DNA from: an uncultured Bacteroidales bacterium
GTDB taxonomy: Bacteria; Bacteroidota; Bacteroidia; Bacteroidales; VadinHA17
Direction: 5' to 3'
Length of the DNA: 64,000 nucleotides
Assembly (NCBI GenBank): GCA_963765005.1
Contig: CAVXUP010000008.1
Location: 12,941-76,940, forward strand
Within the stretch, counting starts at the first letter, position 1, and each line of letters starts with the position of its first letter. The notes under the pieces were generated by a model, which worked only from the letters and a program-made list of their open reading frames with translations, was not told where the DNA came from and searched no databases. The position numbers and the translations under genes were made by a program. Positions 3,602 through 64,000 of this stretch are shown here, piece by piece.

Positions 3602-3809
3602 GTTTTGTTTCAGATTGGATTATTAAAATGCAATTTAGGCTCCCGCTGGGAAAAAGCGTTATATAATAATTGCAAAGACTTGCATATTTCATTGACATTT
3701 TGCACCATGGTGGATGTCGCCAGGCGTCAACCTTGCTTCATTACCGGACACTAAGTGCATTTAGGTTGTGATAGTAAGATTCTGAACAAATAATATGAAC
3801 AGAGAATAT

Positions 3810-5333: not shown

Positions 5334-5919
5334 TAAATACTGACGGATCGAATCCCATGGTACTTCCGGGTACAGTACCCATTCCGTCGGCAGTCATGTT
5401 GACTGGGGTAAAGGGACCATCCGGACGGCTTCCTTTGGCCACCATCGCTTCTCTGTTCCGGCCACGGCTGTGCGGGTAGAGGTAGTATTCCTTAGTGCCG
5501 TCTTTTCTTTTTACCTCGACGAGGTCAGGAGCATACATAACATCCCACTGTCCGCTGATCGGGTATGTAAATATTGGTCCTTCATCACGCCAGTCGGACA
5601 AGTCCTCCACAGGTGCCGACCAGGCCCTTATGTCCGGTCCGCAATAACTCTTAAATCTGACATCGTGCGATCCGATAATATAGATGCGGTATTTTCCCGG
5701 TTTGTCGGGATCCTCAAAAACACGCGGCTCTCCGTCGGGCAAATGCTCCCATAGCGGCAGATACGAATTGCCAGATGTACGGTATGTGGGTTTGGCAGAC
5801 CGCGGGTTGTTTTTCGCTTGATTATTGTCTCCTCTCGATTCTTTTACAGATAACACAAGCGTAAACACCAATAATAAAACTATTTGCGACCTTTTCAAAA
5901 CAGATTTAACTTTCCTCAT
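5302..5919 (-). CDS. GH43-family glycoside hydrolase, N-terminal fragment with signal peptide
   Basis: Likely ATG at 5919 (MRKVKSVLKRSQIVLLLVFTLVLS, a signal peptide). The GH43-like blades end prematurely at 5302. Confidence 0.8.
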   Translation of the reverse strand: MRKVKSVLKRSQIVLLLVFTLVLSVKESRGDNNQAKNNPRSAKPTYRTSGNSYLPLWEHLPDGEPRVFEDPDKPGKYRIYIIGSHDVRFKSYCGPDIRAWSAPVEDLSDWRDEGPIFTYPISGQWDVMYAPDLVEVKRKDGTKEYYLYPHSRGRNREAMVAKGSRPDGPFTPVNMTADGMGTVPGSTMGFDPSVFIEYVTNPERP

Positions 5920-6151
5920 TTTAATTTTTTTTACACCGCTTTTCGAATTTGTTTTTAGGAGAACCATGTATTCCTTTAGCGAAATTAATTGAATTGTTGA
6001 ATTGTCGAAACAATATTTTTCACGTATATTTAAATACATGAATAGGAAGTACTTTAAATGACCAGACTGATCAACTTTTATAAAAGAATTACAACTTATA
6101 ATGCAGCTTATTCGTAGTTTAAAATAATAAATTTAAGCAGGAGGCAAACCA

Positions 6152-8638: not shown

Positions 8639-8678
8639 ACCTGGACAGGCTCTGATAAGGTACAAAGAATTTAAGCCT

Positions 8679-9455
8679 ATGGAAAAATCAGACAATCCCA
8701 AAGCAGCTGATAAAAAAAACCTCCCAATACAAATCAGCAATCTGAAAAAGAAGTTTAAAGACTATTTTTTTGATTTTTTTATGCTCTTTCTGGCGGTCAC
8801 TTTAGGCTTCTTTGTCAATAATCTGAGTGAAACCCGTTCTGACAGGCAAAGGGAAAAGCAATATATGATAAGTCTTGTAAATGATTTAATAGCCGATACA
8901 ACTCAAATCGGGGAAATTCATTCAAGTATCAAAAATCAAATAACCGGAATTGATTCCTTGCTTCGGGTTTTTGAAAACCCGGGTAAAAGGGATTTCATAA
9001 GCAATTTCTACTATTTCGCAGTAAAATATTTAAATTCAGCAACTTTCTTTTCCGGCTCCGACAGAACAATCAGTCAGTTAAAATCCTCAGGAGGATTAAG
9101 GCTCATTCAGAAAATTACGGTATCTGACAGTATAGTGAATTATTACAGTTCAGTAGAAAATGTCAAATATAACACCGAGTTCTGCCTTAAAGAATTCAAT
9201 AAGATATTGGATTATGAGAAGGAAATGATGGATTTCAAATATCTGAGAGTCTATAAAATAGATTCACTTCCTCAAATAAAGGATTTAGAATTGCTGGTAA
9301 ATGAACCGGTTAAAATTAGCCAGTTTTATAATCAGGTGATATCCTATCTCAGCTCATTAATTAACTATAATATTCTCATTAAAGATTTAAAACTTGAAGC
9401 TGAGTCCTTAATGAATTTAGTCAAGGAAAGTTATAATCTTAAAGATGCTTCCTGA
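8679..9455 (+). CDS. Hypothetical N-terminally anchored membrane protein (architecture resembles DUF6090)
   Basis: 258 aa. Basic N-terminus, a single TM (FFDFFMLFLAVTLGFFV), then a soluble helical domain. The family assignment is from memory only. Confidence 0.7.
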   Translation: MEKSDNPKAADKKNLPIQISNLKKKFKDYFFDFFMLFLAVTLGFFVNNLSETRSDRQREKQYMISLVNDLIADTTQIGEIHSSIKNQITGIDSLLRVFENPGKRDFISNFYYFAVKYLNSATFFSGSDRTISQLKSSGGLRLIQKITVSDSIVNYYSSVENVKYNTEFCLKEFNKILDYEKEMMDFKYLRVYKIDSLPQIKDLELLVNEPVKISQFYNQVISYLSSLINYNILIKDLKLEAESLMNLVKESYNLKDAS

Positions 9456-9463
9456 AAATATGA

Positions 9464-9625
9464 GCACACCTAATCACCGGAATAATCTGCGGGTATCGTG
9501 TGGAGGAAATCCAGGATCCGCTAACTCAGAAGGTCCGGTATCTCGATAAACTGGTTGATGAATTAGCGAAAGGGAGGAAGATGGAGAGGATTTTACGTGG
9601 CTCGCAGGATGCCGAAAAACCTTAG
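9464..9625 (+). pseudogene. 3' fragment of a DUF2200-family gene (C-terminal 53 codons only)
   Basis: Frame-2 translation [53 protein letters not shown] matches the conserved C-terminus of DUF2200 proteins as I recall them. It is preceded by an in-frame TGA at 9461-9463 and has no N-terminal part. Confidence 0.6.
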
Positions 9626-9648
9626 GGCCGTTGAGCCGACTAAATGCT

Positions 9649-10578
9649 ATGAATACTAATCTCATCAGTTTAAGAGCACAAAATCTCACAAAGACTTTCA
9701 ATGGTTTTGTTGCCGTAGAGAACCTTTCTGTTGAAATTGGGTTTGGAGAGATATTTGGATTACTTGGACCAAACGGAGCGGGAAAAACAACCTCTATCAG
9801 GATGATTACCGGTCTGTTAAAACCTGATTCAGGAAAAGTTGATTTCAATGTAAAAACCAACAACAAAAATAACGACATACTAAAAGTAGGGCTATGCCCG
9901 CAGGAACTGGTGTTATGGAATAATCTGACATGCCTCGAACAACTTGTTTTTATTGCTGAAATGTATAACGTTCCTGCCCCGGTTGCACGAGGGCGTGCGA
10001 AAATGCTTCTTGAGAAGATCGGCCTTTCTGAAAAAAGTAAAAAACTTGTCAAAACTCTTTCGGGGGGAATGCAGCGAAGAATGAATCTGATAATGGCTCT
10101 GATGCATGATCCGGAGATTCTGATACTTGATGAGCCTGAAGCAGGACTTGATCCACAGAGTCGCGTGATGGTCAGGGATTTCATATACTCATTATCGAAA
10201 ACCAAAACAGTGATTTTCACGACTCATAATATGGATGAGGCAGACCGCATTTGCGATCGGATTGCGATTATGGATCATGGCAAAATACTGATTTCAGATT
10301 CGCCTGAGAACCTTAAACGTAACATCGGGAAAAGAGATAAACTTGAAATCCACTTTTCAGGCCAGGCTATTCAGCTTAATGATATATCTAACCTTGCTGA
10401 TGAAGTTGAATTAAAAGAATCCTCAGTAATATTTAAATCGAAAGCAATAATTGACAGGATCCCATATATACTCGAATCATTGAAAAACAATGGCATTACA
10501 ATTACCGGTATGCATTTGAGTGAGAATACTCTTGAAGATGTATTTATTGCACTAACCGGACGAAAACTAAGAGAATAA
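9649..10578 (+). CDS. ABC transporter ATP-binding protein (ABC-2/drug-exporter type)
   Basis: Walker A GPNGAGKTT, signature LSGGMQRR, Walker B ILILDEP. ATG at 9649; the track start at 9631 is TTG. Confidence 0.92.
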   Translation: MNTNLISLRAQNLTKTFNGFVAVENLSVEIGFGEIFGLLGPNGAGKTTSIRMITGLLKPDSGKVDFNVKTNNKNNDILKVGLCPQELVLWNNLTCLEQLVFIAEMYNVPAPVARGRAKMLLEKIGLSEKSKKLVKTLSGGMQRRMNLIMALMHDPEILILDEPEAGLDPQSRVMVRDFIYSLSKTKTVIFTTHNMDEADRICDRIAIMDHGKILISDSPENLKRNIGKRDKLEIHFSGQAIQLNDISNLADEVELKESSVIFKSKAIIDRIPYILESLKNNGITITGMHLSENTLEDVFIALTGRKLRE

Positions 10579-42868: not shown

Positions 42869-42880
42869 AAAAAGCAGTTA

Positions 42881-44953: not shown

Positions 44954-44954
44954 G

Positions 44955-45674: not shown

Positions 45675-45798
45675 AGAAAATTGATAGGCTGTAAAAGTAC
45701 AAAAACTAAGGTAAATAGTATCTTCGTAATGATTTTGAAAATTACTGCTGAACCATCAGTAATAACGAGGGTCAGGGCTTTTCAGGAAGAGAAACAGA

Positions 45799-47322: not shown

Positions 47323-47365
47323 ATACATATTTTTGTCATTCTTAAAGCACCTTAATATCATTGTG

Positions 47366-47596
47366 ATGCAACTTAAAGAAAAACTTCAGCCTTATCTGCC
47401 TCATCTGACAGCAGTTTTTGTTTTCATCATTATATCTTTCGTTTACTTCTACCCTGTACTTGAGGGGAAGATCCTGAAGGCAAACGATTCGACAGTTTCA
47501 AAAATAAATTCAAAGGAGATAATCGACTTCAGGGAGAAAAACGGTCGGGAACCCTATGGACAAACTCTATATTCAGCGGGATGCCTGCCTACCTGA
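47366..47596 (+). CDS. YfhO-family membrane glycosyltransferase, N-terminal fragment
   Basis: Continues in 47581-49830 if one C is added to the CCC run 47552-47554 (GREPLWTNSIFSGMPAYLIS). Confidence 0.75.
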   Translation: MQLKEKLQPYLPHLTAVFVFIIISFVYFYPVLEGKILKANDSTVSKINSKEIIDFREKNGREPYGQTLYSAGCLPT

Positions 47597-49830: not shown

Positions 49831-49831
49831 A

Positions 49832-50732: not shown

Positions 50733-51710
50733 CTAGTATCTATCCAGCCACCTGTACCTGCGGGTATTATCGCCGAGTTTAAGGGCAAGGGTTATTTCGT
50801 GGGTACCGTAAGTTACCTTCTGGATCTCCTGAAGAGTAAAGTCGAAGGAATAACCGAAAAAGAACTTCTCATATTTGAAACCAATATTGCCAATAATCGC
50901 GCCAGCTGTGCGGTATGACAAACCCGCCCATAGATTCTGGTCGTAGATATATGTGAATCCGATATCTGCCATCGGCTTAAGCTGCTCAGACATAACAAGA
51001 AGTATTGACGGCTGCAGTTCCGTCTTTATGCCCGACTCGAAACTATAGGTCCCGAAGAGATAATAGTGCCGTTCCATCTGGTAATTATCATAGGTGGCAT
51101 CGGCAATTTTGGCTGCGCCTTCAAAAAGCTGCTCCACAGAAAAACCTGCAGAATACCTTTCATTCAGCAGGTAAGCGCCAAAGGCCATATCAGGCACGAA
51201 CATTCCCCGCCGCAGCTCATCATTCAGCCAGGGCTCATTCGGATCCTCAAAGTCGATCTGGGTTTCATCGATCTTGAAATGATACCCTGTTAAAGCGAGA
51301 CCCATAGAGAACTGAGTAGCATCCTTCAGCCTCAGATGATAGGCATAGGTAGCCTGAAATCCTGTGCGCTGAATAAGGCCGTTCCTGTCGCTGAATACAT
51401 AGCCTCCCAATCCTACCCTGCCACTATAGGCAGGCCGGAAAAAGTTGTTATTGATTTTTGTTTCTTTCAGAATGTAACTTCTTTTGAGAATCCTGGCCTG
51501 GCCGCTGAAGGAAAATGTCCTGGGAGCGCCTGTGTATCCTACCCACTGCTCACGGGCAGTCATATTGAAGCTTGTATAACCATCACTCCCTGCAACTGCA
51601 GGATTTATCATGAACTTGTTAAAGAGATACTGACTGTATATGGGAAGCTGCTGCCCGGAAGCCAGGCTTCCTGCCAGAAGACAAAGTAATATGAAAGTCA
51701 GTTTTCTCAC
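50733..51710 (-). CDS. PorP/SprF-family type IX secretion system membrane protein
   Basis: QQLPIYSQYLFNKFMINPAVAGSDGYTSFNMTAREQWVGYTGAPRTFSFSG is the PorP/SprF family start. Lies directly downstream of the adhesin CTD. Confidence 0.9.
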   Translation of the reverse strand: MRKLTFILLCLLAGSLASGQQLPIYSQYLFNKFMINPAVAGSDGYTSFNMTAREQWVGYTGAPRTFSFSGQARILKRSYILKETKINNNFFRPAYSGRVGLGGYVFSDRNGLIQRTGFQATYAYHLRLKDATQFSMGLALTGYHFKIDETQIDFEDPNEPWLNDELRRGMFVPDMAFGAYLLNERYSAGFSVEQLFEGAAKIADATYDNYQMERHYYLFGTYSFESGIKTELQPSILLVMSEQLKPMADIGFTYIYDQNLWAGLSYRTAGAIIGNIGFKYEKFFFGYSFDFTLQEIQKVTYGTHEITLALKLGDNTRRYRWLDRY

Positions 51711-51727: not shown

Positions 51728-54700
51728 CTACTTGACTATTGTTATGTTTCCCACAATTATCCTTCCTCCCCTGTGAACATCAATCATATAATGGTACGAA
51801 TCGATCGGCAGCACTTTGCCGCCGCTTCTGCCATCCCATGGTTTCGGATATCCCTTTTCTGACACCCATATTGTTGCGCCCCACCTGTTAATCACCTTTA
51901 CCTCCATCTCAGGATAGAGATCGGAGTTCTCAATATTCCAGACATCATTTATAAGATCACCATTTGGTGATATTGCATTATGTATGATAAGGCAGGTTTC
52001 GTTGATCGCTTTCACAAACAGAGAGTCTGTTGCCGTACACCCATTGAAATCAGTTACAATTACGCTGAAGTCTCCCTCTGCAACAGCCGGAAGGTTCTGG
52101 GTTGACGAATTATCAGACCATTTGTAAGTATAATCGGTGCTGATAACTCCTCCTGTCACAGCCAGCTGAATTGCGCCATCCGGCCTGTCGGGGCATGAAG
52201 GATCAATAACACTGAAAGCAAGCCTTATTGAATCAGGCTGTATCAGGGTCACTGATGAAGCGGCACTGCAGTTATTTGCATCTGACACAATTAGATCGTA
52301 TTGCCCTGCCGGAAGACCAGTTCGTATCTGATCGGTATTTCCGTCGGACCAGTAGTAAGATATTGCTCCTGCGAAATTCTCAGTCTCGACTGCTATTGTG
52401 CCTGTGCTGTCGCCCATGCAGTTTAGATTGAATCCGCCGTCGTTACTTTCGGAAAGTATGAATTTAATCTCAGGAATACCAGGCTCATCGAGTGTAATGG
52501 TATCTGTAACAGTACAATATTTCGAATCGAGAATCGTCAGATAGTAGTCACCTGCCTTAAGCCCGGTAATGTTCCTTTCTGTGGATGTGAATCCCGTTGA
52601 GCTTGTCCAGTTGTATACAAACGGAGCCGTACCGCTTGACGGGGTAATATCTATGGTACCATTGGAAAGTCCTGTACAGCTGATGGCATACCCATTATAG
52701 TCGGAGGGTAAATAGTCAAACAATAAATCAGGCGGTCTGTTGACTCTTGCAGAATCCCTGCCGGTACATCCATTTGCATCGGTAATATCCACAATATGAT
52801 AACCTTCGGTAAGACCTGTAATTTTATCAGCCGTCGATCCGTTAAGCCAATGGTAGGTGTAAGGACCGACACCTCCTGCTCCTGTGACACTCAACTCTCC
52901 ATCGTTGGCACCTGCAGACTGACATGTAATATCCGTTACATCAAAGATTCCGGTTATAGGCGCAGGCTGAGTCAGGGTTATGTAGTTGACTATTTCACAA
53001 CTATTGGAGTCCTGGACAGCTATTCTGTATGTACCTGCAGTTAGAGCCACCTGATCCTTGTGACCAGGAACTATTCCTGAACCATCGCTTGTTGTCCATA
53101 TGTAAGTGTAGGTTCCGCCTGTTCCACCAGAAGCAGAAATATAAATTCCGCCCGTTCCGCCCGGACAACTGATATTAAATGGCCCGTTGGGAACCGGAGA
53201 TGGTGTAACAGTTACTGTGATCACCGGAGGTTCGGTAAGAGTGTAGGTATCAACAGGCAGCTTTATACATCCGGTATTATCTCTTACTGTGACAGTGTAT
53301 GTGCCAGCTTTTATACCTGAAATATCTTCAAGTGTTGATGTAAATCCGTCGGGACCTGTCCAGGAATAGAACAGAGGCGCAACACCTCCGTTAATTGTAA
53401 TATTGATGTATCCGTCATTCCCTCCGTTGCACGATACATTTGTATTGCCATGAGCGCTTCTTGAAATCACGGCAGGGCTGGCAGTCATACCCGGGAGTTC
53501 TGTAAGTGTAACACTGTCGAGGTCCGCCACACATCCAAGCACATCAAATACCCTTATATAGTATTTCCCGGCAGGGACGCTGTCAAGAAGCGCTTCATTG
53601 GAACTTACTCCGAGAGGCAATCCTGTTGCTGCGGACCACTGGTAGATATAACCGCCGTTGCCCCCTGAAGGAATGGCAAGTGAGGAGCCGTTACTGTATC
53701 CAAGACATGAGACATTTGTATTCTGGAACTGGATTGTAATAGGATCAGGTTCGAGAAGTTCGGCATTCTCGAAAAACTCGCAGCCGTTTGCATCAATTAT
53801 GCGGATCCGATAGCTTCCAGACCTGAGATTATTGTAGATCTTATAGGTATTTGGATTTGAAGGATTAAAGTTGCCAGAAAATACTCCACTTCCAATAACA
53901 TCAGTACTATTGTAAATTACCCAGAACTGGTACGGAGGAGATATACCTGCCGAAACCTGAGCTCTGAGCGACCCGTCACTGAATCCCGGACAGGAGATAT
54001 GGTTATTGAGCGGAGGTATAGGACTCGGGAAGATCCTGGGCCTCGCAGGGATCTGTGTAATGGTTTTGTCGAGAGAATCCCTGCACATATTATTATCGGT
54101 AACAACCACATGATACGGGCCCTGGTTAAGGTAATAGATCTCCACATCATTGCTCTGGAATCCGACAGGTCCTGTCCACCTCACCTGGTAAGGGTCTGCT
54201 CCTTTTGTAAGAATAACCTTTAGGGCGGCAAGACCTGCAGTCAGATCGCAGGTGAATGATTTAAGTTCGTCTATCCTCTTCAACGTTTTTGGATGTACCT
54301 GAACTTCTGAAGTAAATATCCTTCCCGGTTTACATGCAGGTCCGTTTACAACTCTTGGAATGATATTATACAATACAGAACTTACACTGTCAATGCGTGA
54401 TCCTTCAGCAATATTTTTATAACTGTAACCCATCTTATGTCCGGGATCAAGATCATTTTTAGGATCTGAGTTGCCAATAATATCACCGGGCACTCCGGTA
54501 AATCTTACAGTATAATCGAATTTTATCGTTCCGGATGTCATGAAGGTAGGCGATTTGAGCTCAATATCAGTAATGCCGCCGCTGCAGATAACCGGCATCA
54601 GGTTAACAGGTGTTGCCCTGGGTGTTGGATTTACAGTTACCCTGACATTTTCTGCAGGACCATCGGCGCAGCCAAGAGGACTGACAGGAACAAGCCGGTA

Positions 54701-56563
54701 AGTAACTATACGGAAAGTATCCGTCAGGTTAGCCAGCTTGTCAGTAATATACTGATCGTTAAGCAGACCGCTTGTCGGAGAGGTATAGCCTGTGACAAGC
54801 CCTGATGAAGTTACTGTATATTTAAAGCTTATTGCTCCCGTAGTGAATATGCTCGGACTCTGAAGCCGGATACTTGTGTTTGTGCTGTCGCACTGAGGGG
54901 CAGGATCGACAGGAACAGGGAAAATTCTCGGCTGCGGATTGATCCGGACAGTCAGCGAGAATGGAATTCCCAGAGCACATTCGGGTCCTGAATCTCCCGG
55001 CCGGATATGCGGGGTAAAATTGTAGATAATATTGCCCACAACATCATTGCTGTTGACAATAATATCGGTGAGTGCAGCAACCCCTGTGGCTGTCTGATTT
55101 GTAAGACCTGCTGAAAGGGTACCCGTTATACCTCCGGGATAAACAACCGGATCGAGATTGTAATACCATGTTGCGCCAGGATTGACAATATTCAGATTTG
55201 TGATGTCAAACGTGGCAGGCTGCTCGTAGCACAATTCCAGATCAGCGTCTACAAGGATCCTGGGTCTTGGGTTTATTTTTATTTCCAAAAACACTTCTAC
55301 TCCATCTGCACAATCATCGTCGCCGTCTCCGGGTCGTATATGCGGAATAAATCTGTATCCTACTGTCTGCACGTCATTTGTTGTGTTGACAATATTATCA
55401 GTAAGTGCTCCGATACCAGTGGCGGTCTGGTCTGTCAGACCTGTCGGCCAGCTGCCGGTGACTCCCAAAGGATAGGTTGTTTCTATATCGTAGTACCAGG
55501 TAGTTCCGGTATTGACTATGTTCAGCTTGGTGATATCAAATTTTGCAGGTCCATCATAGCATAACTCCGTATCAGTAGTGACGGCGATCTTTGGCTGCGG
55601 GTTGATGACTACCTCGACGGTAATCGCAACGCCTGTTTCACATTCATCCCCTCCGTCGCCCGGACGTATATGTGGAATGAACTTATAGGTAACAGTCTTA
55701 TAGTCATTGGTAGTGTTTACAAGATTATCAGTAAGTGCTCCAATACCGGTAGCGGTCTGATCGGTGAGACCCGTCGGCCAGCTGCCGGTGACTCCCAAAG
55801 GATAGGTTGTTTCTACATCGTAGTACCAGGTAGTTCCGGTATTGACTGTATTCAGCTTGGTGATATCGAATACAGCAGACCCTGTATAACAAAGCTCAGG
55901 ATCAGTGGTGACTGCTATCTTTGGCTGCGGGTTGATGACGATATCGATGGTAACCTCAACGCCTGCTTCACATTCGTCCCCTCCGTCGCCCGGACGTATA
56001 TGAGGAATGAACTTGTAGGTAACAGTCTTAAAGTCATTTGTAGTGTTTACAAGATTATCAGTAAGTGCTCCAATACCAGTGGCGGTCTGGTCTGTCAGAC
56101 CTGTCGGCCAGCTGCCGGTGACTCCCAAAGGATAGGTTGTTTCTATATCGTAGTACCAGGTAGTTCCGGTATTGACTATGTTCAGCTTGGTGATATCAAA
56201 TTTTGCAGGTCCATCATAGCATAACTCCGTATCAGTAGTGACTGCGATCTTTGGCTGCGGGTTGATCACTATCTCGACGGTAATCTCAACGCCTGCTTCA
56301 CATTCGTCCCCTCCGTCGCCCGGACGTATATGTGGAATGAACTTATAGGTAACAGTCTTAAAGTCATTGGTAGTGTTTACAAGATTATCAGTAAGTGCTC
56401 CAATACCGGTAGCGGTCTGATTGATTAACCCTGCCGACAGGGTACCGCTAACGCCCAAAGGATAAACAACAGGTGCCAGATCGTAGTACCAGGTAGTTCC
56501 GGTATTGACTCGTATTGACTGTTCAGATTTGTGATATCGAATACCGCAGACCCTGTATAACAA
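51728..56563 (-). CDS. Giant SprB-like T9SS adhesin, C-terminal fragment (110-aa modules, diverged PKD-like modules, about 10 SprB repeats, type-B CTD)
   Basis: CTD: NAISPNGDLINDVWNI...VINRWGATIW...WDGRSGGKVLPIDSYHYMI. SprB repeats of the type CNGGNDGYINITINGG...YSWTGPDGFTS...AGTYTVTVRDNTGC. Confidence 0.9.
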   Translation of the reverse strand: MLYRVCGIRYHKSEQSIRVNTGTTWYYDLAPVVYPLGVSGTLSAGLINQTATGIGALTDNLVNTTNDFKTVTYKFIPHIRPGDGGDECEAGVEITVEIVINPQPKIAVTTDTELCYDGPAKFDITKLNIVNTGTTWYYDIETTYPLGVTGSWPTGLTDQTATGIGALTDNLVNTTNDFKTVTYKFIPHIRPGDGGDECEAGVEVTIDIVINPQPKIAVTTDPELCYTGSAVFDITKLNTVNTGTTWYYDVETTYPLGVTGSWPTGLTDQTATGIGALTDNLVNTTNDYKTVTYKFIPHIRPGDGGDECETGVAITVEVVINPQPKIAVTTDTELCYDGPAKFDITKLNIVNTGTTWYYDIETTYPLGVTGSWPTGLTDQTATGIGALTDNIVNTTNDVQTVGYRFIPHIRPGDGDDDCADGVEVFLEIKINPRPRILVDADLELCYEQPATFDITNLNIVNPGATWYYNLDPVVYPGGITGTLSAGLTNQTATGVAALTDIIVNSNDVVGNIIYNFTPHIRPGDSGPECALGIPFSLTVRINPQPRIFPVPVDPAPQCDSTNTSIRLQSPSIFTTGAISFKYTVTSSGLVTGYTSPTSGLLNDQYITDKLANLTDTFRIVTYRLVPVSPLGCADGPAENVRVTVNPTPRATPVNLMPVICSGGITDIELKSPTFMTSGTIKFDYTVRFTGVPGDIIGNSDPKNDLDPGHKMGYSYKNIAEGSRIDSVSSVLYNIIPRVVNGPACKPGRIFTSEVQVHPKTLKRIDELKSFTCDLTAGLAALKVILTKGADPYQVRWTGPVGFQSNDVEIYYLNQGPYHVVVTDNNMCRDSLDKTITQIPARPRIFPSPIPPLNNHISCPGFSDGSLRAQVSAGISPPYQFWVIYNSTDVIGSGVFSGNFNPSNPNTYKIYNNLRSGSYRIRIIDANGCEFFENAELLEPDPITIQFQNTNVSCLGYSNGSSLAIPSGGNGGYIYQWSAATGLPLGVSSNEALLDSVPAGKYYIRVFDVLGCVADLDSVTLTELPGMTASPAVISRSAHGNTNVSCNGGNDGYINITINGGVAPLFYSWTGPDGFTSTLEDISGIKAGTYTVTVRDNTGCIKLPVDTYTLTEPPVITVTVTPSPVPNGPFNISCPGGTGGIYISASGGTGGTYTYIWTTSDGSGIVPGHKDQVALTAGTYRIAVQDSNSCEIVNYITLTQPAPITGIFDVTDITCQSAGANDGELSVTGAGGVGPYTYHWLNGSTADKITGLTEGYHIVDITDANGCTGRDSARVNRPPDLLFDYLPSDYNGYAISCTGLSNGTIDITPSSGTAPFVYNWTSSTGFTSTERNITGLKAGDYYLTILDSKYCTVTDTITLDEPGIPEIKFILSESNDGGFNLNCMGDSTGTIAVETENFAGAISYYWSDGNTDQIRTGLPAGQYDLIVSDANNCSAASSVTLIQPDSIRLAFSVIDPSCPDRPDGAIQLAVTGGVISTDYTYKWSDNSSTQNLPAVAEGDFSVIVTDFNGCTATDSLFVKAINETCLIIHNAISPNGDLINDVWNIENSDLYPEMEVKVINRWGATIWVSEKGYPKPWDGRSGGKVLPIDSYHYMIDVHRGGRIIVGNITIVK
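52020..54260 (-). repeat. SprB-repeat region (about 10 diverged units of roughly 75-85 aa)
   Basis: Recurrent C.G..DG.I......G..PY.Y.W........T...I..L.AG.Y.V.V.D..GC pattern. Confidence 0.75.
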
Positions 56564-56799
56564 AGCTCAGGATCAGTGGTGACCGCTATCTTTGGCTGAG
56601 GGTTGATGACTACCTCGATAGTAACCTCAACGCCTGCTTCACATTCGTCCCCTCCGTCGCCCGGACGTATATGTGGAATGAACTTATAGGTAACAGTCTT
56701 AAAGTCATTGGTCGTGTTGACTAGATTATCTGTAAGCGCTGCAATACCGGTGGCGGTCTGATCGGTGAGACCCGTCGGCCAGCTGCCGGTGACTCCCAA
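56425..56799 (-). CDS. Giant adhesin, internal fragment (one 110-aa module)
   Basis: Same module sequence as its neighbours. Separated from them by indels at 56511-56522 and 57097-57116. Confidence 0.8.
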   Translation of the reverse strand: MGVTGSWPTGLTDQTATGIAALTDNLVNTTNDFKTVTYKFIPHIRPGDGGDECEAGVEVTIEVVINPQPKIAVTTDPELCYTGSAVFDITNLNSQYESIPELPGTTIWHLLFILWALAVPCRQG

Positions 56800-56915
56800 A
56801 GGATAGGTTGTTTCTACATCGTAGTACCAGGTAGTTCCGGTATTGACTGTATTCAGATTTGTGATATCGAATACCGCAGACCCTGTATAACAAAGCTCAG
56901 GATCAGTGGTGACCG

Positions 56916-58778
56916 CTATCTTTGGCTGAGGGTTGATGACGATCTCGATGGTAACCTCAACGCCTGTTTCACATTCGTCCCCTCCGTCGCCCGGACGTAT
57001 ATGTGGAATGAACTTATAGGTAACAGTCTTAAAGTCATTGGTCGTGTTGACAAGATTATCAGTAAGTGCTGCAATACCGGTGGCGGTCTGGTCTGTGGCC
57101 AGACCTGTCGGCCAGCGGTGACTCCCAAAGGATAGGTTGTTTCTATATCGTAGTACCAGGTAGTTCCGGTATTGACTATGTTCAGCTTGGTGATATCAAA
57201 TTTTGCAGGTCCATCATAGCATAACTCCGTATCAGTAGTGACTGCGATCTTTGGCTGCGGGTTGATCACTATCTCGACGGTAATCTCAACGCCTGTTTCA
57301 CATTCATCCCCTCCGTCGCCCGGACGTATATGTGGAATGAACTTATAGGTAACAGTCTTAAAGTCATTGGTCGTGTTGACTAGATTATCTGTAAGCGCTG
57401 CAATACCGGTGGCGGTCTGATCGGTGAGACCCGTCGGCCAGCTGCCGGTGACTCCCAAAGGATAGGTTGTTTCTACATCGTAGTACCAGGTAGTTCCGGT
57501 ATTGACTGTATTCAGCTTTGTGATATCGAATACCGCAGACCCTGTATAACAAAGCTCAGGATCAGTGGTGACCGCTATCTTTGGCTGCGGGTTGATGACG
57601 ATCTCGATGGTAACCTCAACGCCTGTTTCACATTCGTCCCCTCCGTCGCCCGGACGTATATGAGGAATGAACTTATAGGTAACAGTCTTAAAGTCATTTG
57701 TAGTGTTTACAAGATTATCAGTAAGTGCTCCGATACCAGTGGCGGTCTGGTCTGTCAGACCTGTCGGCCAGCTGCCGGTGACTCCCAAAGGATAGGTTGT
57801 TTCTATATCGTAGTACCAGGTAGTTCCGGTATTGACTATGTTCAGCTTGGTGATATCAAATTTTGCAGGTCCATCATAGCATAACTCCGTATCAGTAGTG
57901 ACTGCGATCTTTGGCTGCGGGTTGATGACTACCTCGACGGTAATCTCAACGCCTGTTTCACATTCGTCCCCTCCGTCGCCCGGACGTATATGTGGAATGA
58001 ACTTATAGGTAACAGTCTTAAAGTCATTGGTCGTGTTGACTAGATTATCAGTAAGTGCTGCAATACCGGTGGCGGTCTGATCGGTGAGACCCGTCGGCCA
58101 GCTGCCGGTGACTCCCAAAGGATAGGTTGTTTCTACATCGTAGTACCAGGTAGTTCCGGTATTGACTATGTTCAGCTTTGTGATATCGAATACCGCAGAC
58201 CCTGTATAACAAAGCTCAGGATCAGTGGTGACTGCCATCTTTGGCTGAGGGTTGATGACGATCTCGATGGTAACCTCAACGCCTGTTTCACATTCGTCCC
58301 CTCCGTCGCCCGGACGTATATGAGGAATGAACTTATAGGTAACAGTCTTAAAGTCATTTGTAGTGTTGACTAGATTATCAGTAAGCGCTGCAATACCGGT
58401 GGCGGTCTGATCGGTGAGACCCGTCGGCCAGCTGCCGGTGACTCCCAAAGGATAGGTTGTTTCTATATCGTAGTACCAGGTAGTTCCGGTATTGACTATG
58501 TTCAGCTTGGTGATATCAAATTTTGCAGGTCCATCATAGCATAACTCCGTATCAGTAGTGACTGCGATCTTTGGCTGCGGGTTGATCACTATCTCGACGG
58601 TAATCTCAACGCCTGTTTCACATTCATCCCCTCCGTCGCCCGGACGTATATGTGGAATGAACTTATAGGTAACAGTCTTAAAGTCATTGGTCGTGTTTAC
58701 AAGATTATCAGTAAGTGCTCCAATACCGGTAGCGGTCTGATTGATTAACCCTGCCGACAGGGTACCGCTAACGCCCAA
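56916..58778 (-). CDS. Giant adhesin, internal fragment (about 5.5 modules)
   Basis: Near-identical 110-aa modules. The 3' tail of this ORF is out-of-frame read-through after 57116. Confidence 0.8.
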   Translation of the reverse strand: MGVSGTLSAGLINQTATGIGALTDNLVNTTNDFKTVTYKFIPHIRPGDGGDECETGVEITVEIVINPQPKIAVTTDTELCYDGPAKFDITKLNIVNTGTTWYYDIETTYPLGVTGSWPTGLTDQTATGIAALTDNLVNTTNDFKTVTYKFIPHIRPGDGGDECETGVEVTIEIVINPQPKMAVTTDPELCYTGSAVFDITKLNIVNTGTTWYYDVETTYPLGVTGSWPTGLTDQTATGIAALTDNLVNTTNDFKTVTYKFIPHIRPGDGGDECETGVEITVEVVINPQPKIAVTTDTELCYDGPAKFDITKLNIVNTGTTWYYDIETTYPLGVTGSWPTGLTDQTATGIGALTDNLVNTTNDFKTVTYKFIPHIRPGDGGDECETGVEVTIEIVINPQPKIAVTTDPELCYTGSAVFDITKLNTVNTGTTWYYDVETTYPLGVTGSWPTGLTDQTATGIAALTDNLVNTTNDFKTVTYKFIPHIRPGDGGDECETGVEITVEIVINPQPKIAVTTDTELCYDGPAKFDITKLNIVNTGTTWYYDIETTYPLGVTAGRQVWPQTRPPPVLQHLLIILSTRPMTLRLLPISSFHIYVRATEGTNVKQALRLPSRSSSTLSQR

Positions 58779-61700
58779 AGGATAAACAACAGGTGCCAGA
58801 TCGTAGTACCAGGTAGTTCCGGTATTGACTGTATTCAGATTTTGTGATATCGAATACAGCAGACCCTGTATAACAAAGCTCAGGATCAGTGGTGACCGCT
58901 ATCTTTGGCTGAGGGTTGATGACTACCTCGATGGTAACCTCAACGCCTGCTTCACATTCGTCCCCTCCGTCGCCCGGACGTATATGAGGAATGAACTTAT
59001 AGGTAACAGTCTTAAAGTCATTTGTCGTGTTGACTAGATTATCTGTAAGCGCTGCAATACCGGTGGCGGTCTGATCGGTGAGACCCGTCGGCCAGCTGCC
59101 GGTGACTCCCAAAGGATAGGTTGTTTCTACATCGTAGTACCAGGTAGTTCCGGTATTGACTGTATTCAGATTTGTGATATCGAATACCGCAGACCCTGTA
59201 TAACAAAGCTCGGGATCAGAGACGACGTTGATACTAGGCTGTGGATTGATCCAGATATCGACAGTTATAGCAGCACCTGAACATTGATTGTTTCCGTTAC
59301 CGTCGATGCTCCATGGAATAATATTGTAAGTTATCTTCCTGGCAACAGGTGTGGTATTTACCAGGGTCTGAACAAGAGGAGAAGCGATAGGATTACCTGT
59401 AAGGTTGTCGCTGTAACCTGTGATATCTCCGATTCCGTTAAGATCTGTTACCGTCCAGGTGTAACGCATCCCATTCTTTGTGGTATTTGCTGTTGAAACA
59501 ATGATATTTGTTGAAGTATTATCACAGATCTCATCTCCGGGTGCGGTAATAACAAGTACAGGTTCCACCCATATTATCTGCTGCTTGTCAACTATGTTAC
59601 CATTACCATCTTCAAGCCTCCAGGTACGGGTTATGAAACCTGCGTTTGAACAATTGAACGGGTTGGATTCAATATCACTAAATATAAATGCCTGTATTCC
59701 GGCTGCGCAATTATCTGATTCATCCGTAACATCACCGGTAACAGCAATGGTTTTATCAAACGAACAATCAGGATTGCGGCAGATAATTATGTCAGCAGGT
59801 ACGGTAAATGAAGGATCCTCATCATCAGTAACAGTAACGGTCTGATTACAGTCTGCTGTCAGTCCGCTTCCGTCAGTTACAGTCCAGGTGACTGTTGTTA
59901 TCCCTATCGGGAAAAGATATGTAACAGGATCTATTATTACTGCTCCAACCCTTGCAACCACGCTTGCAACACTGCAGTTATCGGAGGTCACCGGAGTGCC
60001 AAGCGGTACTGTCGTAGTGCAGTTGCCTGTACCATCATCAGAGGTCTCTGCTGTCACATTGAGAGGACAGACTATAGTCGGATTTTCATCATCAGTCACT
60101 GTCACTGTCTGATCACAGCTTGTTGTATTCCCGCTTCCGTCGGTTACTATCCAGGTAATTGTTGTTACACCTATCGGGAAGAGATAGCTGGCAGGAACGA
60201 TTGTTGTTCCACCTACCTGGGCAACCACGCTGGCTATGCTGCAGTTATCTGACGTGACCGGCAGTCCAAGAGCAGCGGTTGTTGTACAGTTGCCTGTTCC
60301 GTCGGCTGATGTAACTGTAACAACATTTGCCGGACATGTTATTGCCGGATCTTCATCATCAGTGATTGTAACTGTCTGGTTGCAGCTTGCTGTATTGCCG
60401 CTTCCGTCTGTTACTATCCAGGTAACTGTTGTGACTCCTATCGGGAAGAGATATGTTGCAGGATCAATAGTTGACCCGCCAACCTGTGCAACAACGCCTG
60501 CCACACTGCAGTTGTCGCCGGTAACAGGTGCTCCAAGAGCTGCTGTAGTTGTACAATTGCCGGCTCCGTCAGCTGATGTGACTGTTACAACATTTGCAGG
60601 ACAGGCAATTGTCGGGTTTTCATTGTCAGTAACTGTAACGGTCTGGTTGCAGGTAGCTGTGTTGCCGCTTGCATCTGTTGCAATCCATGCTACTGTTGTT
60701 ACTCCTATGGGGAACTGATAAGTTAACGGATTGATAGTAGCACCTCCTACCTGGGCAATAACACTTGACACGCTGCAATTATCGCTTGCAACATAAACGC
60801 CAGGAGGTATAATTGTGGTGCAGTTGCCTGTCCCATCTGCTGAGGTTACAGTAATCACATCAGCCGGGCAGGTGAGAACCGGGTTCTCATCATCAGTCAC
60901 TGTAACTGTCTGATTACAGGTTGCTGTCCGCCCGCTGCCGTCTGTAACAATCCAGGTGACTGTGGTAACTCCAATGGGGAAGAGATGAGTTGCCGGAGTA
61001 ATTGTTACTCCTCCAACCTGCGCCACTATGCCTGCAACACTGCAGTTATCGGTAGTAACAGGTGCTCCGAGAACAGCGGTTGTAGTACAGTTGCCGGTTC
61101 CGTCAGCAGAGGTTGTTGTCACAACATTTGCAGGACATGCAATTGTCGGGTCCTCATCATCAGTCACAGTCACTTTCTGATTGCAGTTTGCTGTGCGGCC
61201 GCTGCCGTCTGTGACTATCCAGTTCACTGTAGTTACACCTATCGGGAAGAGATAAGTTGCCGGGTTAATAGTTGCACCCCCAACCTGAGCTACCACACCT
61301 GCGACACTGCAATTATCTCCGGTAACAGGGGCACCCAGTACAGCTGTAGTTGTGCAGTTGCCGGTTCCGTTTGCTGAAGTGACGGTAACAACATCTGCAG
61401 GACAGGATATTGTCGGGTTCTCATCGTCGGTAACTGTTACAGTCTGGTTGCATGATACTGTATTTCCGCTTCCATCAATGACGATCCAGTTTACTGTAGT
61501 TATTCCTATCGGGAAGAGGTAGGTTGCAGGATCAATTGCTGAACCGCCAACCTGTGCCACAACACTTGCAACACTGCAGTTATCGGCTGTTACAGGAGTT
61601 CCGATCGATGCTGTTGTCGTGCAGTTTCCGGCACCATCGGCGGAAGTGACCGTAACAATACCGGGCTGACAAACAATCGTCGGATTCTCATCATCAGTTA

Positions 61701-64000
61701 CTGTAACCGACTGGGTACAGCTTGCGGTACGACCGCTGCCGTCTGTAACTATCCAGGTCACCGGGGTTGTTCCGATCGGGAAGAGATATGTTGCAGGATC
61801 TATTGTTGCTCCTCCGACCTGTGCAACAACACCTGCAACGCTGCAGTTATCGGTAGTAACAGGTGCTCCGAGAACAGCCGTGGTGGTGCAGTTGCCCGTG
61901 CCATTTGCTGATGTGACTGTGACAACATCTGCCGGACAGGCAATTGTCGGATCCTCGTCATCAGTCACGGTCACTTTCTGATTGCAGTTTGCAGTACGGC
62001 CGCTTCCGTCGGTGACTATCCAGTTGACTGTAGTTTCACCTATCGGGAAGAGATATGTTGCAGGATCAATTGTTAAGCCGCCAACCTGTGCCACCACGCC
62101 GGCAACGCTGCAGTTGTCGCTGGTAACTGGTACCCCTAAAACAGCCGTGGTGGTGCAGTTGCCGGTTCCGTTTGCTGATGTGACAGTAGCAACATCTGCA
62201 GGACAGGTTATTGCCGGGTTTTCGTCATCCGTCACTGTTACTGTCTGGGTGCAACTTGCTGTCAGTCCGCTGCCGTCTGTAACTATCCAGGTGACTGTGG
62301 TAACTCCAATGGGGAAGAGATGAGTTGCAGGTGTAATTGTTACTCCTCCAACCTGCGCCACTACGCCTGCAACACTGCAGTTATCGGTAGTAACAGGTGT
62401 CCCGAGAACTGCTGTTGTTGTGCAGTCGCCTGAACCATTTGCAGATGTAACTGTTGCTACGTTAGCCGGACAGGCTATCGTCGGATCCTCATCATCGGTT
62501 ACGGTAACGGTCTGGTCGCAGCTTGCTGTATTGCCGCTGCCATCAGTCACTGTCCAGGTAACAGTAGTAACACCTATCGGGAAGAGATAGGTTCCAGGAT
62601 CAATTACAGTGACGCCAACCTTTGCCACTATTCCTGCCACACTGCAGTTGTCACCTGTTACAGGTATGCCAAGTACTGCAGTAGTAGTACAGTTTCCTGC
62701 TCCATTTGCAGAGGTTGTGGTTGCTACATTTGCGGGACAGGTGATTGTCGGGTTAACATCATCAATGACCGTTACTTTAAAAGTACAGGATGCAGAATTT
62801 CCTGCAGCATCATATACCTTCCAGATGACGAATGTAATTCCCGGGTTGAATGTTACACCTGCAAGAGACGTACCGCTAGTCTCCCCGAGTGTTGTTACAC
62901 CGGAAAGCTGATATGTAGTATTTGTTATTGCGCAGTTGTCGGAAGATGATATAAGGTCAAATTCAATACCGCTGACAATATATGTACATCCGTTGTTAGT
63001 CCCTGCAGTCTGGTCGCCGGGACAAACTATCAAAGGAGGATCATCATCATTAACCGTAACAGTAAAGCTGCAGGCAGAAGAGTTACCGGCTGCATCAAAT
63101 ACCCTCCATGTTACTGTTGTAACTCCTTTATTGAACGAAACACCTGCAAGGGTTGAGCCCGGAGTGGCTCCGACAACTGTAGCGCCTGCCAGCTGATATG
63201 ATGCATTTGTAACCCCGCAGTTGTCACTTGTGAGAGCCGGATCAAATTCATTTCCGGCAACCTTATATGAACAAGCGTCATTGGTGCCTACAATCTGGTC
63301 AGATACACATGTGACTGAAGGATTGTCATCATCATTTACAGTAACCGTGAAACTGCAGCTGGCCGAATTCCCGACTGAATCATAAACTTTCCAGGTAACA
63401 GTGGTCACACCTGAATTGAAGGTTTTGCCTGCAAGTGAGGTACCGCTTGTTTCTGCGCTGGTTGTTGCTCCCGCCAGCTGATAAGTTGTATTGATTATCC
63501 CGCAGTTGTCGGAAGAACCTGTAAGATTAAATTCATTTCCGGCAACAACATAGGTGCATCCTGTATTGGTGCCTACAACCTGGTCGGCAACACAGGTGAG
63601 CACAGGGCTGACATTATCAGTTACCGTGACGGTGAAGCTGCATGATGAAGAATTTCCGGCTGCATCATATGCCCTCCAGGTCACTGTTGTTATCCCGTTA
63701 TTGAAAATGACTCCGGCAAGTGTTGATCCGCTTGTCTCTCCTATTATTGTAGCGCCTGTAAGCTGGTATGAAGTAGTTGTAACCGAGCAGTTGTCTGAAG
63801 ATCCGGTAAAGTTAAATTCGGTTCCGGCCACAACATAGGTACATCCCAGGTTCGACCCCACTGACTGGTTGGCAATACATGCAAGGACAGGATTGTCATC
63901 ATCATTGACTGTAACTGTAAAACTGCAAGTGGATGAGTTGCCCGCTGCATCAAAAACTTTCCATGTAACTGTTGTAACTCCACTGTTAAAAACGATTCCC
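58768..64000 (-). CDS. Giant adhesin, N-proximal fragment (HYR arrays), open at the window edge
   Basis: The frame stays open from 63861 to 63999; I translated GIVFNSGVTTVTWKVFDAAGNSSTCSFTVTVNDDDNPVLACIANQS. The true start therefore lies beyond 64000. Confidence 0.88.
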   Translation of the reverse strand, partial: GIVFNSGVTTVTWKVFDAAGNSSTCSFTVTVNDDDNPVLACIANQSVGSNLGCTYVVAGTEFNFTGSSDNCSVTTTSYQLTGATIIGETSGSTLAGVIFNNGITTVTWRAYDAAGNSSSCSFTVTVTDNVSPVLTCVADQVVGTNTGCTYVVAGNEFNLTGSSDNCGIINTTYQLAGATTSAETSGTSLAGKTFNSGVTTVTWKVYDSVGNSASCSFTVTVNDDDNPSVTCVSDQIVGTNDACSYKVAGNEFDPALTSDNCGVTNASYQLAGATVVGATPGSTLAGVSFNKGVTTVTWRVFDAAGNSSACSFTVTVNDDDPPLIVCPGDQTAGTNNGCTYIVSGIEFDLISSSDNCAITNTTYQLSGVTTLGETSGTSLAGVTFNPGITFVIWKVYDAAGNSASCTFKVTVIDDVNPTITCPANVATTTSANGAGNCTTTAVLGIPVTGDNCSVAGIVAKVGVTVIDPGTYLFPIGVTTVTWTVTDGSGNTASCDQTVTVTDDEDPTIACPANVATVTSANGSGDCTTTAVLGTPVTTDNCSVAGVVAQVGGVTITPATHLFPIGVTTVTWIVTDGSGLTASCTQTVTVTDDENPAITCPADVATVTSANGTGNCTTTAVLGVPVTSDNCSVAGVVAQVGGLTIDPATYLFPIGETTVNWIVTDGSGRTANCNQKVTVTDDEDPTIACPADVVTVTSANGTGNCTTTAVLGAPVTTDNCSVAGVVAQVGGATIDPATYLFPIGTTPVTWIVTDGSGRTASCTQSVTVTDDENPTIVCQPGIVTVTSADGAGNCTTTASIGTPVTADNCSVASVVAQVGGSAIDPATYLFPIGITTVNWIVIDGSGNTVSCNQTVTVTDDENPTISCPADVVTVTSANGTGNCTTTAVLGAPVTGDNCSVAGVVAQVGGATINPATYLFPIGVTTVNWIVTDGSGRTANCNQKVTVTDDEDPTIACPANVVTTTSADGTGNCTTTAVLGAPVTTDNCSVAGIVAQVGGVTITPATHLFPIGVTTVTWIVTDGSGRTATCNQTVTVTDDENPVLTCPADVITVTSADGTGNCTTIIPPGVYVASDNCSVSSVIAQVGGATINPLTYQFPIGVTTVAWIATDASGNTATCNQTVTVTDNENPTIACPANVVTVTSADGAGNCTTTAALGAPVTGDNCSVAGVVAQVGGSTIDPATYLFPIGVTTVTWIVTDGSGNTASCNQTVTITDDEDPAITCPANVVTVTSADGTGNCTTTAALGLPVTSDNCSIASVVAQVGGTTIVPASYLFPIGVTTITWIVTDGSGNTTSCDQTVTVTDDENPTIVCPLNVTAETSDDGTGNCTTTVPLGTPVTSDNCSVASVVARVGAVIIDPVTYLFPIGITTVTWTVTDGSGLTADCNQTVTVTDDEDPSFTVPADIIICRNPDCSFDKTIAVTGDVTDESDNCAAGIQAFIFSDIESNPFNCSNAGFITRTWRLEDGNGNIVDKQQIIWVEPVLVITAPGDEICDNTSTNIIVSTANTTKNGMRYTWTVTDLNGIGDITGYSDNLTGNPIASPLVQTLVNTTPVARKITYNIIPWSIDGNGNNQCSGAAITVDIWINPQPSINVVSDPELCYTGSAVFDITNLNTVNTGTTWYYDVETTYPLGVTGSWPTGLTDQTATGIAALTDNLVNTTNDFKTVTYKFIPHIRPGDGGDECEAGVEVTIEVVINPQPKIAVTTDPELCYTGSAVFDITKSEYSQYRNYLVLRSGTCCLSFGR
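59815..62775 (-). repeat. Array of 11 HYR-like domains, period 267 nt (89 aa)
   Basis: VTVTDDE[DN]PTI.CPA.V.TVTSA.G.GNCTTTA.LG.PVT.DNCSVAGVVAQVGG..I.PATYLFPIG.TTV.W.VTDGSG.TA.C. The landmark catcatcagt occurs at 60087 and 60354, which is 267 nt apart. Confidence 0.88.
62775..64000 (-). repeat. Array of at least 4.5 HYR-like domains of a second type, period 285 nt (95 aa)
   Basis: C..DQ.VGTN.GCTY.V.G.EF....SDNC......YQL.GAT...TSG.SLAG..FN.G.TTVTW.V.DAAGNS..CSFTVTV.D. Confidence 0.85.

Follow-up and report, generated by a model that had tools for sequence, protein, structure and literature searches.

A higher-order repeat array in a giant type IX secretion adhesin gene of an uncultured Bacteroidales bacterium, and the probable origin of its frame breaks in consensus errors

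RESULTS

A giant T9SS cargo gene and its downstream partner

The window analyzed here comprises 64,000 nucleotides from an uncultured Bacteroidales bacterium. The source contig measures 600,209 bp (in NCBI and ENA) and appears to stem from a long-read-type technology. The locus is built from the following features:

51728..64000, minus strand: gene for a giant type IX secretion system (T9SS) cargo protein, an SprB-like adhesin (ORF list, Pfam, and indel repair)
51731..51985, minus strand: T9SS type-B C-terminal sorting domain (TIGR04131, PF13585 CHU_C)
59819..62764, minus strand: 11 HYR-domain copies repeating every 267 nt, in frame (TRF, about 73% matches)
50733..51710, minus strand: gene for the cognate PorP/SprF-family outer-membrane protein (PF11751, TIGR03519), 17 nt downstream of the stop codon of the adhesin gene

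The adhesin gene exceeds 12.3 kb, and because the frame remains open up to window position 63999, its 5' end lies outside the window. As assembled, it consists of four ORFs (58768..>63999, 56916..58778, about 57100..56425, and 51728..56563), three frame breaks splitting the gene such that the N-terminal region and the C-terminal domain (CTD) are not part of one continuous ORF. Pfam assigned HYR domains (15 stretches, E = 2e-82), PKD_5 domains, SprB repeats (PF13573, 5 stretches, E = 9.3e-40), and a CHU_C domain (PF13585, E = 5.9e-16), the last coinciding with the type-B sorting domain, which scored 51.8 bits with TIGR04131 (cut-off 35). The downstream gene product was recognized by PF11751 (E = 1.2e-69) and TIGR03519 (245 bits, cut-off 90.55); in an exact look-up, one Logan contig (ERR15459710) carried the identical protein. 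The synteny of the adhesin and PorP/SprF genes is kept in the relatives L001, L004, L008, and L010. From its domains, the adhesin would be exported by the T9SS via its type-B CTD, and the PorP/SprF protein encoded downstream would hold it on the cell surface.

A comparable arrangement is known from SprB/SprF of Flavobacterium johnsoniae, where a likewise giant and repetitive surface protein, which carries SprB repeats and a type-B CTD of the T9SS, is followed by a PorP/SprF gene; SprF is reported to be required for secretion of SprB and to bind it (PMC9143113). The adhesin described here differs in that HYR units and a near-identical PKD_5 array lie upstream of the SprB repeats, and nothing points to a part in gliding; its assembled ORF is broken, and the likeness to SprB is one of domains and gene arrangement.

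Twelve PKD_5-type modules with nested periods

The array and the modules next to it are organized as follows:

55253..59226, minus strand: array of 12 PKD_5-type modules, M1 to M12, of 330 nt (110 aa) each (TRF, Pfam, difference matrix)
56914..59226, minus strand: super-repeat (higher-order repeat) copy 1, M1 to M7, 2313 nt (difference matrix)
55253..56913, minus strand: super-repeat copy 2, partial, M8 to M12 (difference matrix)
54590..55252, minus strand: older, diverged modules M13 and M14 (amino acid identity to M4)

TRF resolved a period of 330 nt in 11.6 copies, spanning 55373-59219. On the minus strand, the junction motifs start at 59226, 58896, 58562, 58232, 57902, and 57572 for M1 to M6 and at 57242, 56913, 56583, 56242, 55912, and 55582 for M7 to M12. 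The original prediction had read two junction types in the order B B A B A B A / B B A B A, and this order as well as both junction strings that it quoted proved correct. Three module types result, namely A (M3, M5, M7, M10, and M12), B (M1, M4, M6, M8, and M11), and a variant, B' (M2 and M9). All modules have a length of 330 nt except M2 (334), M7 (329), and M9 (341); without their indels, M2 and M9 have 333 nt each, i.e., one codon beyond the other modules, as had been proposed for B'.

When M12, whose 3' third diverges, is left out, the mean number of differences per module pair is 41.5 at a shift of one module, 27.0 at a shift of two, 26.8 at a shift of five, and 9.5 at a shift of seven, so that copies seven modules apart are more alike than neighboring modules. 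On the basis of these mean differences, the periods of 330, 660, and 2313 nt are all real, and the suggestion that an adhesin carries a modular array with nested periods is borne out. Between the super-repeat copies, M1/M8 differ at 7 sites, M2/M9 at 4 (after repair), M3/M10 at 14, and M4/M11 at 13, and M10 is nearer to M5 than to M3. The identity noted earlier between 58721-58830 and 56401-56510 extends to an exact match of 138 nt (56373-56510, at an offset of 2320). The longest exact repeats in the array reach 262 nt, the modules being 87-99% identical; in protein, the array copies are 79-98% identical to M4, a value that falls to 55% for M13 (54920-55252) and 32% for M14 (54590-54919).

The modules score 63.4 and 83.5 bits with PF19406 (cut-off 25), well above the gathering score of PKD_5, a PKD-like family of Bacteroidota surface proteins. 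Two Cys residues, C8 and C91, are conserved as a pair; compared with the family at large, the modules form a sub-type of 110-111 aa. An AlphaFold2 model of M3 to M5 features three all-β domains, predicted as β-sandwiches, with a pLDDT of 81.5, and was matched by Foldseek to tandem Ig/FN3-like domains. Among the 50 PDB matches listed, the grappling-hook protein GhpA of Aureispira (PDB 9flv), a bacterial surface filament likewise composed of tandem β-sandwich domains, ranked only 32nd by E-value and had the highest query TM-score (0.43) and the lowest rmsd (7.4); at 12% sequence identity, the resemblance is at the level of the fold. Twelve such domains in tandem make up the repetitive stalk of the giant SprB-like adhesin.

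Differences between A and B modules give dN/dS values of 0.13-0.35, modules downstream of the first break included, and the array is under purifying selection. Its nested periods (330 nt, A/B 660 nt, 7-module 2313 nt) constitute a higher-order repeat, which unequal crossing-over and gene conversion in a multi-module register may have built; within a genome the modules are homogenized, and between genomes they diverge. Higher-order repeats are known from centromeric alpha-satellite DNA, and ice-binding and RTX adhesins contain many identical Ig-like repeats. The present array resembles these systems in having a multi-monomer period that is better conserved than neighboring monomers, in evolving in concert, and in copy numbers that vary among relatives. 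It differs from them in being coding and in frame (330 = 3 x 110), in its purifying selection, and in comprising only 1.7 copies of a 7-module unit.

Three frame breaks, two of them next to the B' patch

The frame breaks and the sequence patch that defines B' are located as follows:

58740..58799, minus strand: patch that sets B' apart, in M2 (DLAPVVYPLGVSGTLSAGLINQ, with one extra codon), 60-nt exact match
56420..56479, minus strand: B' variant patch in M9, same as in M2, 60-nt exact match
58840..58843, minus strand: frame break 1 (+1) in M2, coding-strand AAA to AAAA
57097..57116, minus strand: frame break 2 (net -1) in M7, -4/+3
56511..56522, minus strand: frame break 3 (net +8) in M9, -2/+10

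All three indels lie where the original prediction had placed them, and its view that the breaks are linked to the repeat is supported. An exact copy of the 60-nt patch is present at two places in the window; the sequence shares about 70% identity with the degenerate module M13 on the flank and about 58% with the B modules. Break 1 is positioned 41 nt upstream of the patch, the shifted frame reaching a stop at 58768. At break 2, GGCA/GCAG is lost and GCC is gained 17 nt further on, yielding the quasi-repeat CTGGCC(G)ACAG. Break 3, 32-43 nt upstream of the patch, combines the loss of TA with a 10-nt quasi-duplication of (C/G)AGTCAATAC, which sits between AATAC direct repeats. Two of the three sites bear out the claim of frame breaks at homologous positions in the super-repeat: breaks 1 and 3 both fall in B' modules within columns 53-73 (chance of coincidence about 0.025), whereas the break in M7 has no counterpart one super-repeat away.

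With shifts of +1, -1, and +8, the three breaks add up to +8, which rules out a compensated frameshift. No simple-sequence tract was found at the breaks, break 1 being a change from A3 to A4 only and the other two sites complex indels. Across the break stretch, M1 and M8 are the same as M9 and differ from M2 at one site (column 38), yet both are unbroken; context-specific base-calling or methylation errors were therefore rejected as a source of the M2-M9 coincidence. The indels lie at or beside columns that are variable between modules, with P ranging from 0.012 to 0.13 depending on the tolerance, and because of this dependence the co-location is not relied on.

Repair of the three indel clusters alone results in a single ORF of 4087 codons with no internal stop. 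Modules M2 and M4 to M9 contain 0-1 private substitutions against five elementary indel events. Outside the array, intact ORFs cover 95% of the other approximately 60 kb of the window; candidates for split genes there proved to be separate, complete genes. The chance that all three breaks would fall into the array is 2e-4 under a uniform distribution across the window and 0.034 under one across the gene.

Related arrays

The relative L004, situated on a 557-kb long-read-style contig (ERZ25039549 contig_64379, a name of the "contig_N" type; region of about 296-306 kb in record coordinates), carries a 29-module array with a 5-module super-repeat of its own in 5.8 copies, m21 being equal to m26. 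Its breaks are confined to the array and the flanking genes are intact; 11 insertions stand against one deletion, and there is no stop in 3190 codons. In several of the insertions, the two alleles of a site that varies between copies stand one after the other. Specifically, the type-e modules m5 and m10 are broken at exactly the same column, and this recurrent break site is a copy-variable position (T or A) at which the insertion holds both alleles. Such allele stacking, with both inter-copy alleles in one indel, is not evident at the three break sites of the window.

Protein identity of modules amounts to 76-98% within a genome and 55-64% between genomes. The nearest module relatives from the first module search (50-70% amino acid identity) were a dozen metagenomic fragments with fragmented ORFs only, on contigs named "contig_N" or "ctg...l", several of which are noisy along their whole length. 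Among more distant homologues are contigs from short reads whose ends fall at or close to the array or that have N gaps inside it. The module searches yielded fragments throughout and no relative with an intact array. Two further relatives, L005 and L010 (roughly 94% identical), differ by whole-module gaps of 334 nt, which lends indirect support to the copy-number variation that the original prediction had considered. Their comparison was considered as a gauge of technical errors and discarded, the approximately 5% substitutions reflecting real divergence; L011, about 91% identical to both, is equally unusable for this purpose. A search with the unique adhesin segment against genome and metagenome contigs did not find a same-species locus over the array (only relatives at 32-45% protein identity), no other record was found for the frameshifted 124-aa ORF, and a text search on the accession numbers found no paper.

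DISCUSSION

The locus joins a periodic array within a giant adhesin gene to damage by indels only and clean flanks, and the same pattern is present in a relative. We favor a reading in which the higher-order repeat array is real and errors remain in its consensus sequence, to which we assign a probability of roughly 0.65. The frame breaks most likely do not reflect biology; rather, they probably represent errors that consensus building or polishing left in what appears to be a long-read-type (meta)genome assembly. In polished long-read assemblies, residual errors concentrate in repeats (PMC8812927), and the window resembles the cases in that Polypolish paper in that the damage is confined to repeat copies, consists of indels and not of substitutions, and spares unique sequence; it differs in that the paper deals with isolate genomes and mostly homopolymer errors, whereas two of the three sites in the window are complex. 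Errors of this kind would persist in a near-identical array, at clustered positions that vary between module copies, while unique flanks would be corrected. If consensus errors are the cause, the unbroken alleles are expected to be AAA, GGCAGCTGG...TCTGACAG, and CTGAATACAGTCAATACC for breaks 1, 2, and 3, respectively.

Several observations sit uneasily with consensus errors. The array is just 4 kb long, and many long reads should span it; both B' modules are broken, although the unique 60-nt patch should anchor them best; the M9 quasi-duplication and the M7 quasi-repeat resemble classical footprints of slippage or template switching; the clear allele stacking of L004 is not evident at the window's breaks; and the co-location of indels and variable columns is only weakly significant. 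As to the coincidence in M2 and M9, we hypothesize that reads from a sub-population whose array is one 2313-nt super-repeat longer or shorter may place gap edges at these modules and so corrupt the consensus.

The same footprints speak for the strongest alternative, which we consider possible but clearly less probable: the indels would be genuine, and the lineage or its dominant sub-population would have very recently lost the adhesin gene through slippage or template switching within the array. A quasi-tandem duplication of 9-10 nt flanked by AATAC direct repeats (M9) and an insertion that makes a local quasi-repeat (M7) are typical of such events. Coverage was probably good, given the high quality of the flanks, and the patch uniquely anchors the B' modules; two distinct indels within about 20 nt of one module position could mark a mutational hotspot (P of about 0.025). 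Against this stands the nature of the damage. Neutral decay that gives three frameshift clusters should leave many substitutions and some nonsense codons, since substitutions usually exceed indels in bacteria; the five indel events in about 3.3 kb are accompanied by next to no private substitutions, the repaired ORF is free of stops, and the dN/dS values are low (as given above). Moreover, the unrelated assembly L004 repeats the indel-only, array-only pattern with its 11:1 insertion bias. Bacterial pseudogenes are usually described as having a deletion bias, and the bias in L004 runs in the opposite direction.

It is improbable that assembly produced the super-repeat, through a mis-join or a wrongly duplicated segment that gave rise to the second B-B' pair, or that a collapse conceals further modules. 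Arrays with such long exact repeats and such similar modules are hard to assemble, and homologous short-read arrays contain N gaps or lie at contig ends. The super-repeat copies are, however, not identical, differing at scattered sites (for M1/M8, M3/M10, and M4/M11 as listed above, with M10 nearer to M5); L004 has independently its own 5-module super-repeat; and unique sequence of the same ORF flanks the array on both sides in the correct order. The original prediction had named collapse and mis-join as candidate assembly faults, and no sign of either emerged. An artefact is the best-supported reading of the breaks, the likelier fault being an error of consensus building or polishing, local to three sites.

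It is about equally improbable that the breaks are both genuine and recurrent, i.e., that a tract-free indel hotspot upstream of the B' patch repeatedly knocks out the T9SS adhesin in wild populations, which might be restored by gene conversion from intact sister modules, with the breaks of L004 arising by the same process. Least probable is functional on/off switching, which had also been put forward and would here act at a hotspot close to the B' patch on its upstream side: surface adhesins are a class often subject to phase variation, and the breaks at homologous super-repeat points and at the identical column of m5 and m10 in L004 would fit, but there is no simple-sequence tract to slip, two of the indels are complex multi-event changes, no single reversible step restores the frame from a net shift of +8, M1 and M8 are unbroken despite nearly the same sequence, and the recurrent site in L004 is a T/A copy variant whose insertion holds both alleles.

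The finding is thus largely an ordinary one, the breaks being more likely consensus errors than a biological switch. If they were real, they would represent a very recent loss of the adhesin or a new mode of switching, which the evidence does not favor; a recurrent hotspot would mean on/off variation of an adhesin based on a repeat array in environmental Bacteroidota. For the organism, the consequence lies in annotation: a gene caller would report the giant adhesin as four fragments or as a pseudogene, with the result that the number of T9SS cargo proteins and the repertoire of surface proteins would be given wrongly. The same fragmentation is found in every related assembly examined. The array itself, with a 7-module unit here and a 5-module unit in the relative, is a clean, small example of how a bacterial coding array can be organized into higher-order repeats and evolve in concert.

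A repetitive adhesin gene in an SprB-SprF arrangement

The array lies within an adhesin gene exceeding 12.3 kb, as its reading frame remains open at 63999.

Features of the adhesin gene and its array
51728 to past the window end, minus strand: adhesin gene containing the array (from ORFs, frame open at the edge)
59226, 58896, 58562, 58232, 57902, 57572, 57242, 56913, 56583, 56242, 55912, 55582, minus strand: starts of modules M1 to M12
58740-58799 and 56420-56479, minus strand: B' patch of 60 nt, identical in M2 and M9

The gene comprises at least 15 HYR units, a PKD_5-type array, the older, diverged modules M13 and M14, five SprB repeats, and a T9SS type-B C-terminal domain (TIGR04131, 51.8 bits; cutoff, 35). 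The HYR part (59819-63999, minus strand) includes a 267-nt array of 11 copies with about 73% matches, and more HYR-like units reach to the edge of the window. The array modules match PF19406 (PKD_5) at 63 to 84 bits (cutoff, 25), and the AlphaFold model of M3 to M5 (pLDDT, 81.5) features three all-beta sandwich domains, for which Foldseek found tandem Ig/FN3-like proteins, among them the GhpA surface filament of Aureispira. A PorP/SprF-family gene (TIGR03519, 245 bits) starts 17 nt downstream; with an adhesin gene encoding a type-B C-terminal domain adjoining it, the pair represents the SprB-SprF arrangement, in which type-B cargo requires a cognate PorP-like protein that binds SprB (PMC9143113). 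The gene order adhesin, PorP/SprF, methyltransferase, YfhO-like is kept in distant relatives. Going by the names of proteins clustering with those of the window, the 600,209-bp source contig probably belongs to the Marinilabiliales or Bacteroidales. The locus adjoins a glycosyltransferase/polysaccharide-type cluster (38281-50728; GT4 genes, YfhO-like membrane protein, methyltransferases), inside which a small 23S-rRNA-intervening-sequence/bAvd-like protein is encoded (39885-40247).

Nested periodicity and its evolution

TRF reported a 330-nt period with 11.6 copies at 55373-59219. Cutting at the conserved junction delimited 12 modules, all of 330 nt except M2 (334 nt), M7 (329 nt), and M9 (341 nt), and reproduced exactly the originally proposed junction order, B B A B A B A B B A B A from M1 to M12. 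M2 and M9 constitute a third type, B', with an indel-free length of 333 nt each; the B' patch is closer to the flanking old module M13 (about 70%) than to B modules (about 58%). After minimal repair, and with M12 left out, module pairs differed on average at 41.5 sites at a shift of one module, 27.0 at two, 26.8 at five, and 9.5 at seven. The periods of 330, 660, and 2313 nt are therefore all real, in line with the original prediction, whose 110-nt identity between super-repeat copies in fact extends to 138 nt. The super-repeat is imperfect: M10 differs from M5 at 5 sites and from M3 at 14, and mosaicism on a fine scale is seen in M7, which we take as signs of gene conversion. A/B differences in the window show dN/dS values of 0.13 to 0.35, and thus the modules evolved as protein. 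Long antisense ORFs recur in both repeat arrays at 55-63 kb, including one at 55670-56224 (plus strand); they look like mechanical shadows of repeated coding sequence rather than genes.

A gene of this kind is also present on a relative's contig, L004 (556,985 bp), where 29 modules of 330 nt (m1 to m29, L004 6189-15770) follow a strict five-module super-repeat (1650 nt, 5.8 copies), some copies being identical (m21 = m26). Module protein identity is 76 to 98% within each near-identical array but only 55 to 64% between the two genomes, a pattern of concerted evolution with lineage-specific super-repeats. The related contigs L005 and L010 (about 94% nucleotide identity over an alignment of about 16 kb) are separated by gaps of 334, 334, and 267 nt, all whole PKD_5 or HYR units, pointing to module copy-number change between lineages. 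L010 also holds twenty-five 267-nt HYR units of 97% identity in a single frame (3687-10374; ORF 2949..10061), with many frame breaks elsewhere throughout the contig; a rough estimate of rates suggests that, in this noisy assembly, near-identical copies are cleaner than unique sequence. In protein searches with array modules, the window ORF P0003 was absent from the first, although the query is 95 to 100% identical to it, and present in the second; a word-based candidate filter evidently can miss top matches for highly repetitive queries.

Frame breaks in the array

The three breaks lie where originally reported.

Frame breaks, all on the minus strand
58840-58843: break 1 (M2), AAA to AAAA
57097-57116: break 2 (M7), -4 and +3
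56511-56522: break 3 (M9), -2 and +10

Their proposed placement at homologous points of the super-repeat holds for M2 and M9 (columns 53 to 73 of both B' modules, 32 to 43 nt upstream of the B' patch; chance of coincidence, about 0.025) and not for M7, which has no partner.

On balance of the evidence for and against, we favor consensus error (probability, roughly 0.65). Repairing the three indel clusters alone yields a single 4087-codon ORF without stop; 95% of the other ~60 kb of the window lies under intact ORFs, and the overlapping ORF pairs checked there are separate complete genes. M2 and M4 to M9 carry 0 or 1 private substitutions versus five elementary indel events. Since substitutions usually exceed indels, neutral decay lasting long enough for three frameshift clusters to build up would be expected to introduce substitutions and nonsense codons as well. 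In L004 the flanking genes are intact and all seven frame-shifted modules (m5, m6, m7, m10, m11, m15, and m17) lie within the array, with 11 insertions, 1 deletion, and, once the indels alone are repaired, 0 stops in 3190 codons. At several insertions, the two alleles of a variant between copies stand one after the other (GAT-GGGG or GAC-GGCG becoming GACTGGGG, GGT-TGTC or GGT-AGTT becoming GGTATGTC, CAG-CC or CGA-CC becoming CAGACC), the look of a consensus from a mixed pile-up. The most identical copies, m18 to m28, contain no breaks. Errors left after polishing cluster in repeats (PMC8812927). The closest module relatives (50 to 70% amino acid identity) all come from contigs with long-read-assembler-style names, several being frame-shifted throughout.

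More distant homologues from short-read assemblies end at or near the array or have N gaps inside. In L001 (a fen Bacteroidales MAG; 99.86% identical across 11 kb to the JGI contig L003), both frame breaks (~4050 and ~5060) fall at short N gaps on either side of its 306-nt module array; L003 begins inside that array (4-1658). A closely related contig of JGI sample 3300075153, with the same gene order, ends 1167 residues into the adhesin from the C terminus, at about window position 55,231 beside the M12/M13 boundary; the database homologue P0040 (87% amino acid identity) begins within M14, and many others are partial C-terminal fragments of 1030 to 1370 residues.

Against consensus error, the sequencing technology behind the source contig is itself inferred, the array spans just 4 kb, both B' modules are affected though best anchored, no allele stacking is apparent at the window's three sites, and indels co-locate weakly with variable columns (P = 0.012 to 0.13). 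In addition, the quasi-duplication in M9, set between AATAC direct repeats, and the quasi-repeat in M7 have the appearance of true products of slippage or template switching. Real mutation of recent date, perhaps in a sub-population, is thus a lesser possibility, disfavored by indels without matching substitutions or nonsense codons. The suspicion of an assembly artefact probably holds in the form of consensus error, and not for gross mis-join or collapse, which is improbable given the scattered differences between the super-repeat copies and the relative's own super-repeat. The suggested on/off switching is improbable too: the break sites have no simple-sequence tract, two are complex, the three shifts sum to +8, and over the affected stretch M1 and M8, identical to M9 and one site off M2, are intact.

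The original observation was sound and the periodic structure is real; unequal recombination would be expected to produce it in a repetitive adhesin gene, here one of a known kind. The frame breaks probably have a technical origin. The array offers a tidy case of higher-order repeats within bacterial coding sequence and a practical warning for the annotation of such genes.
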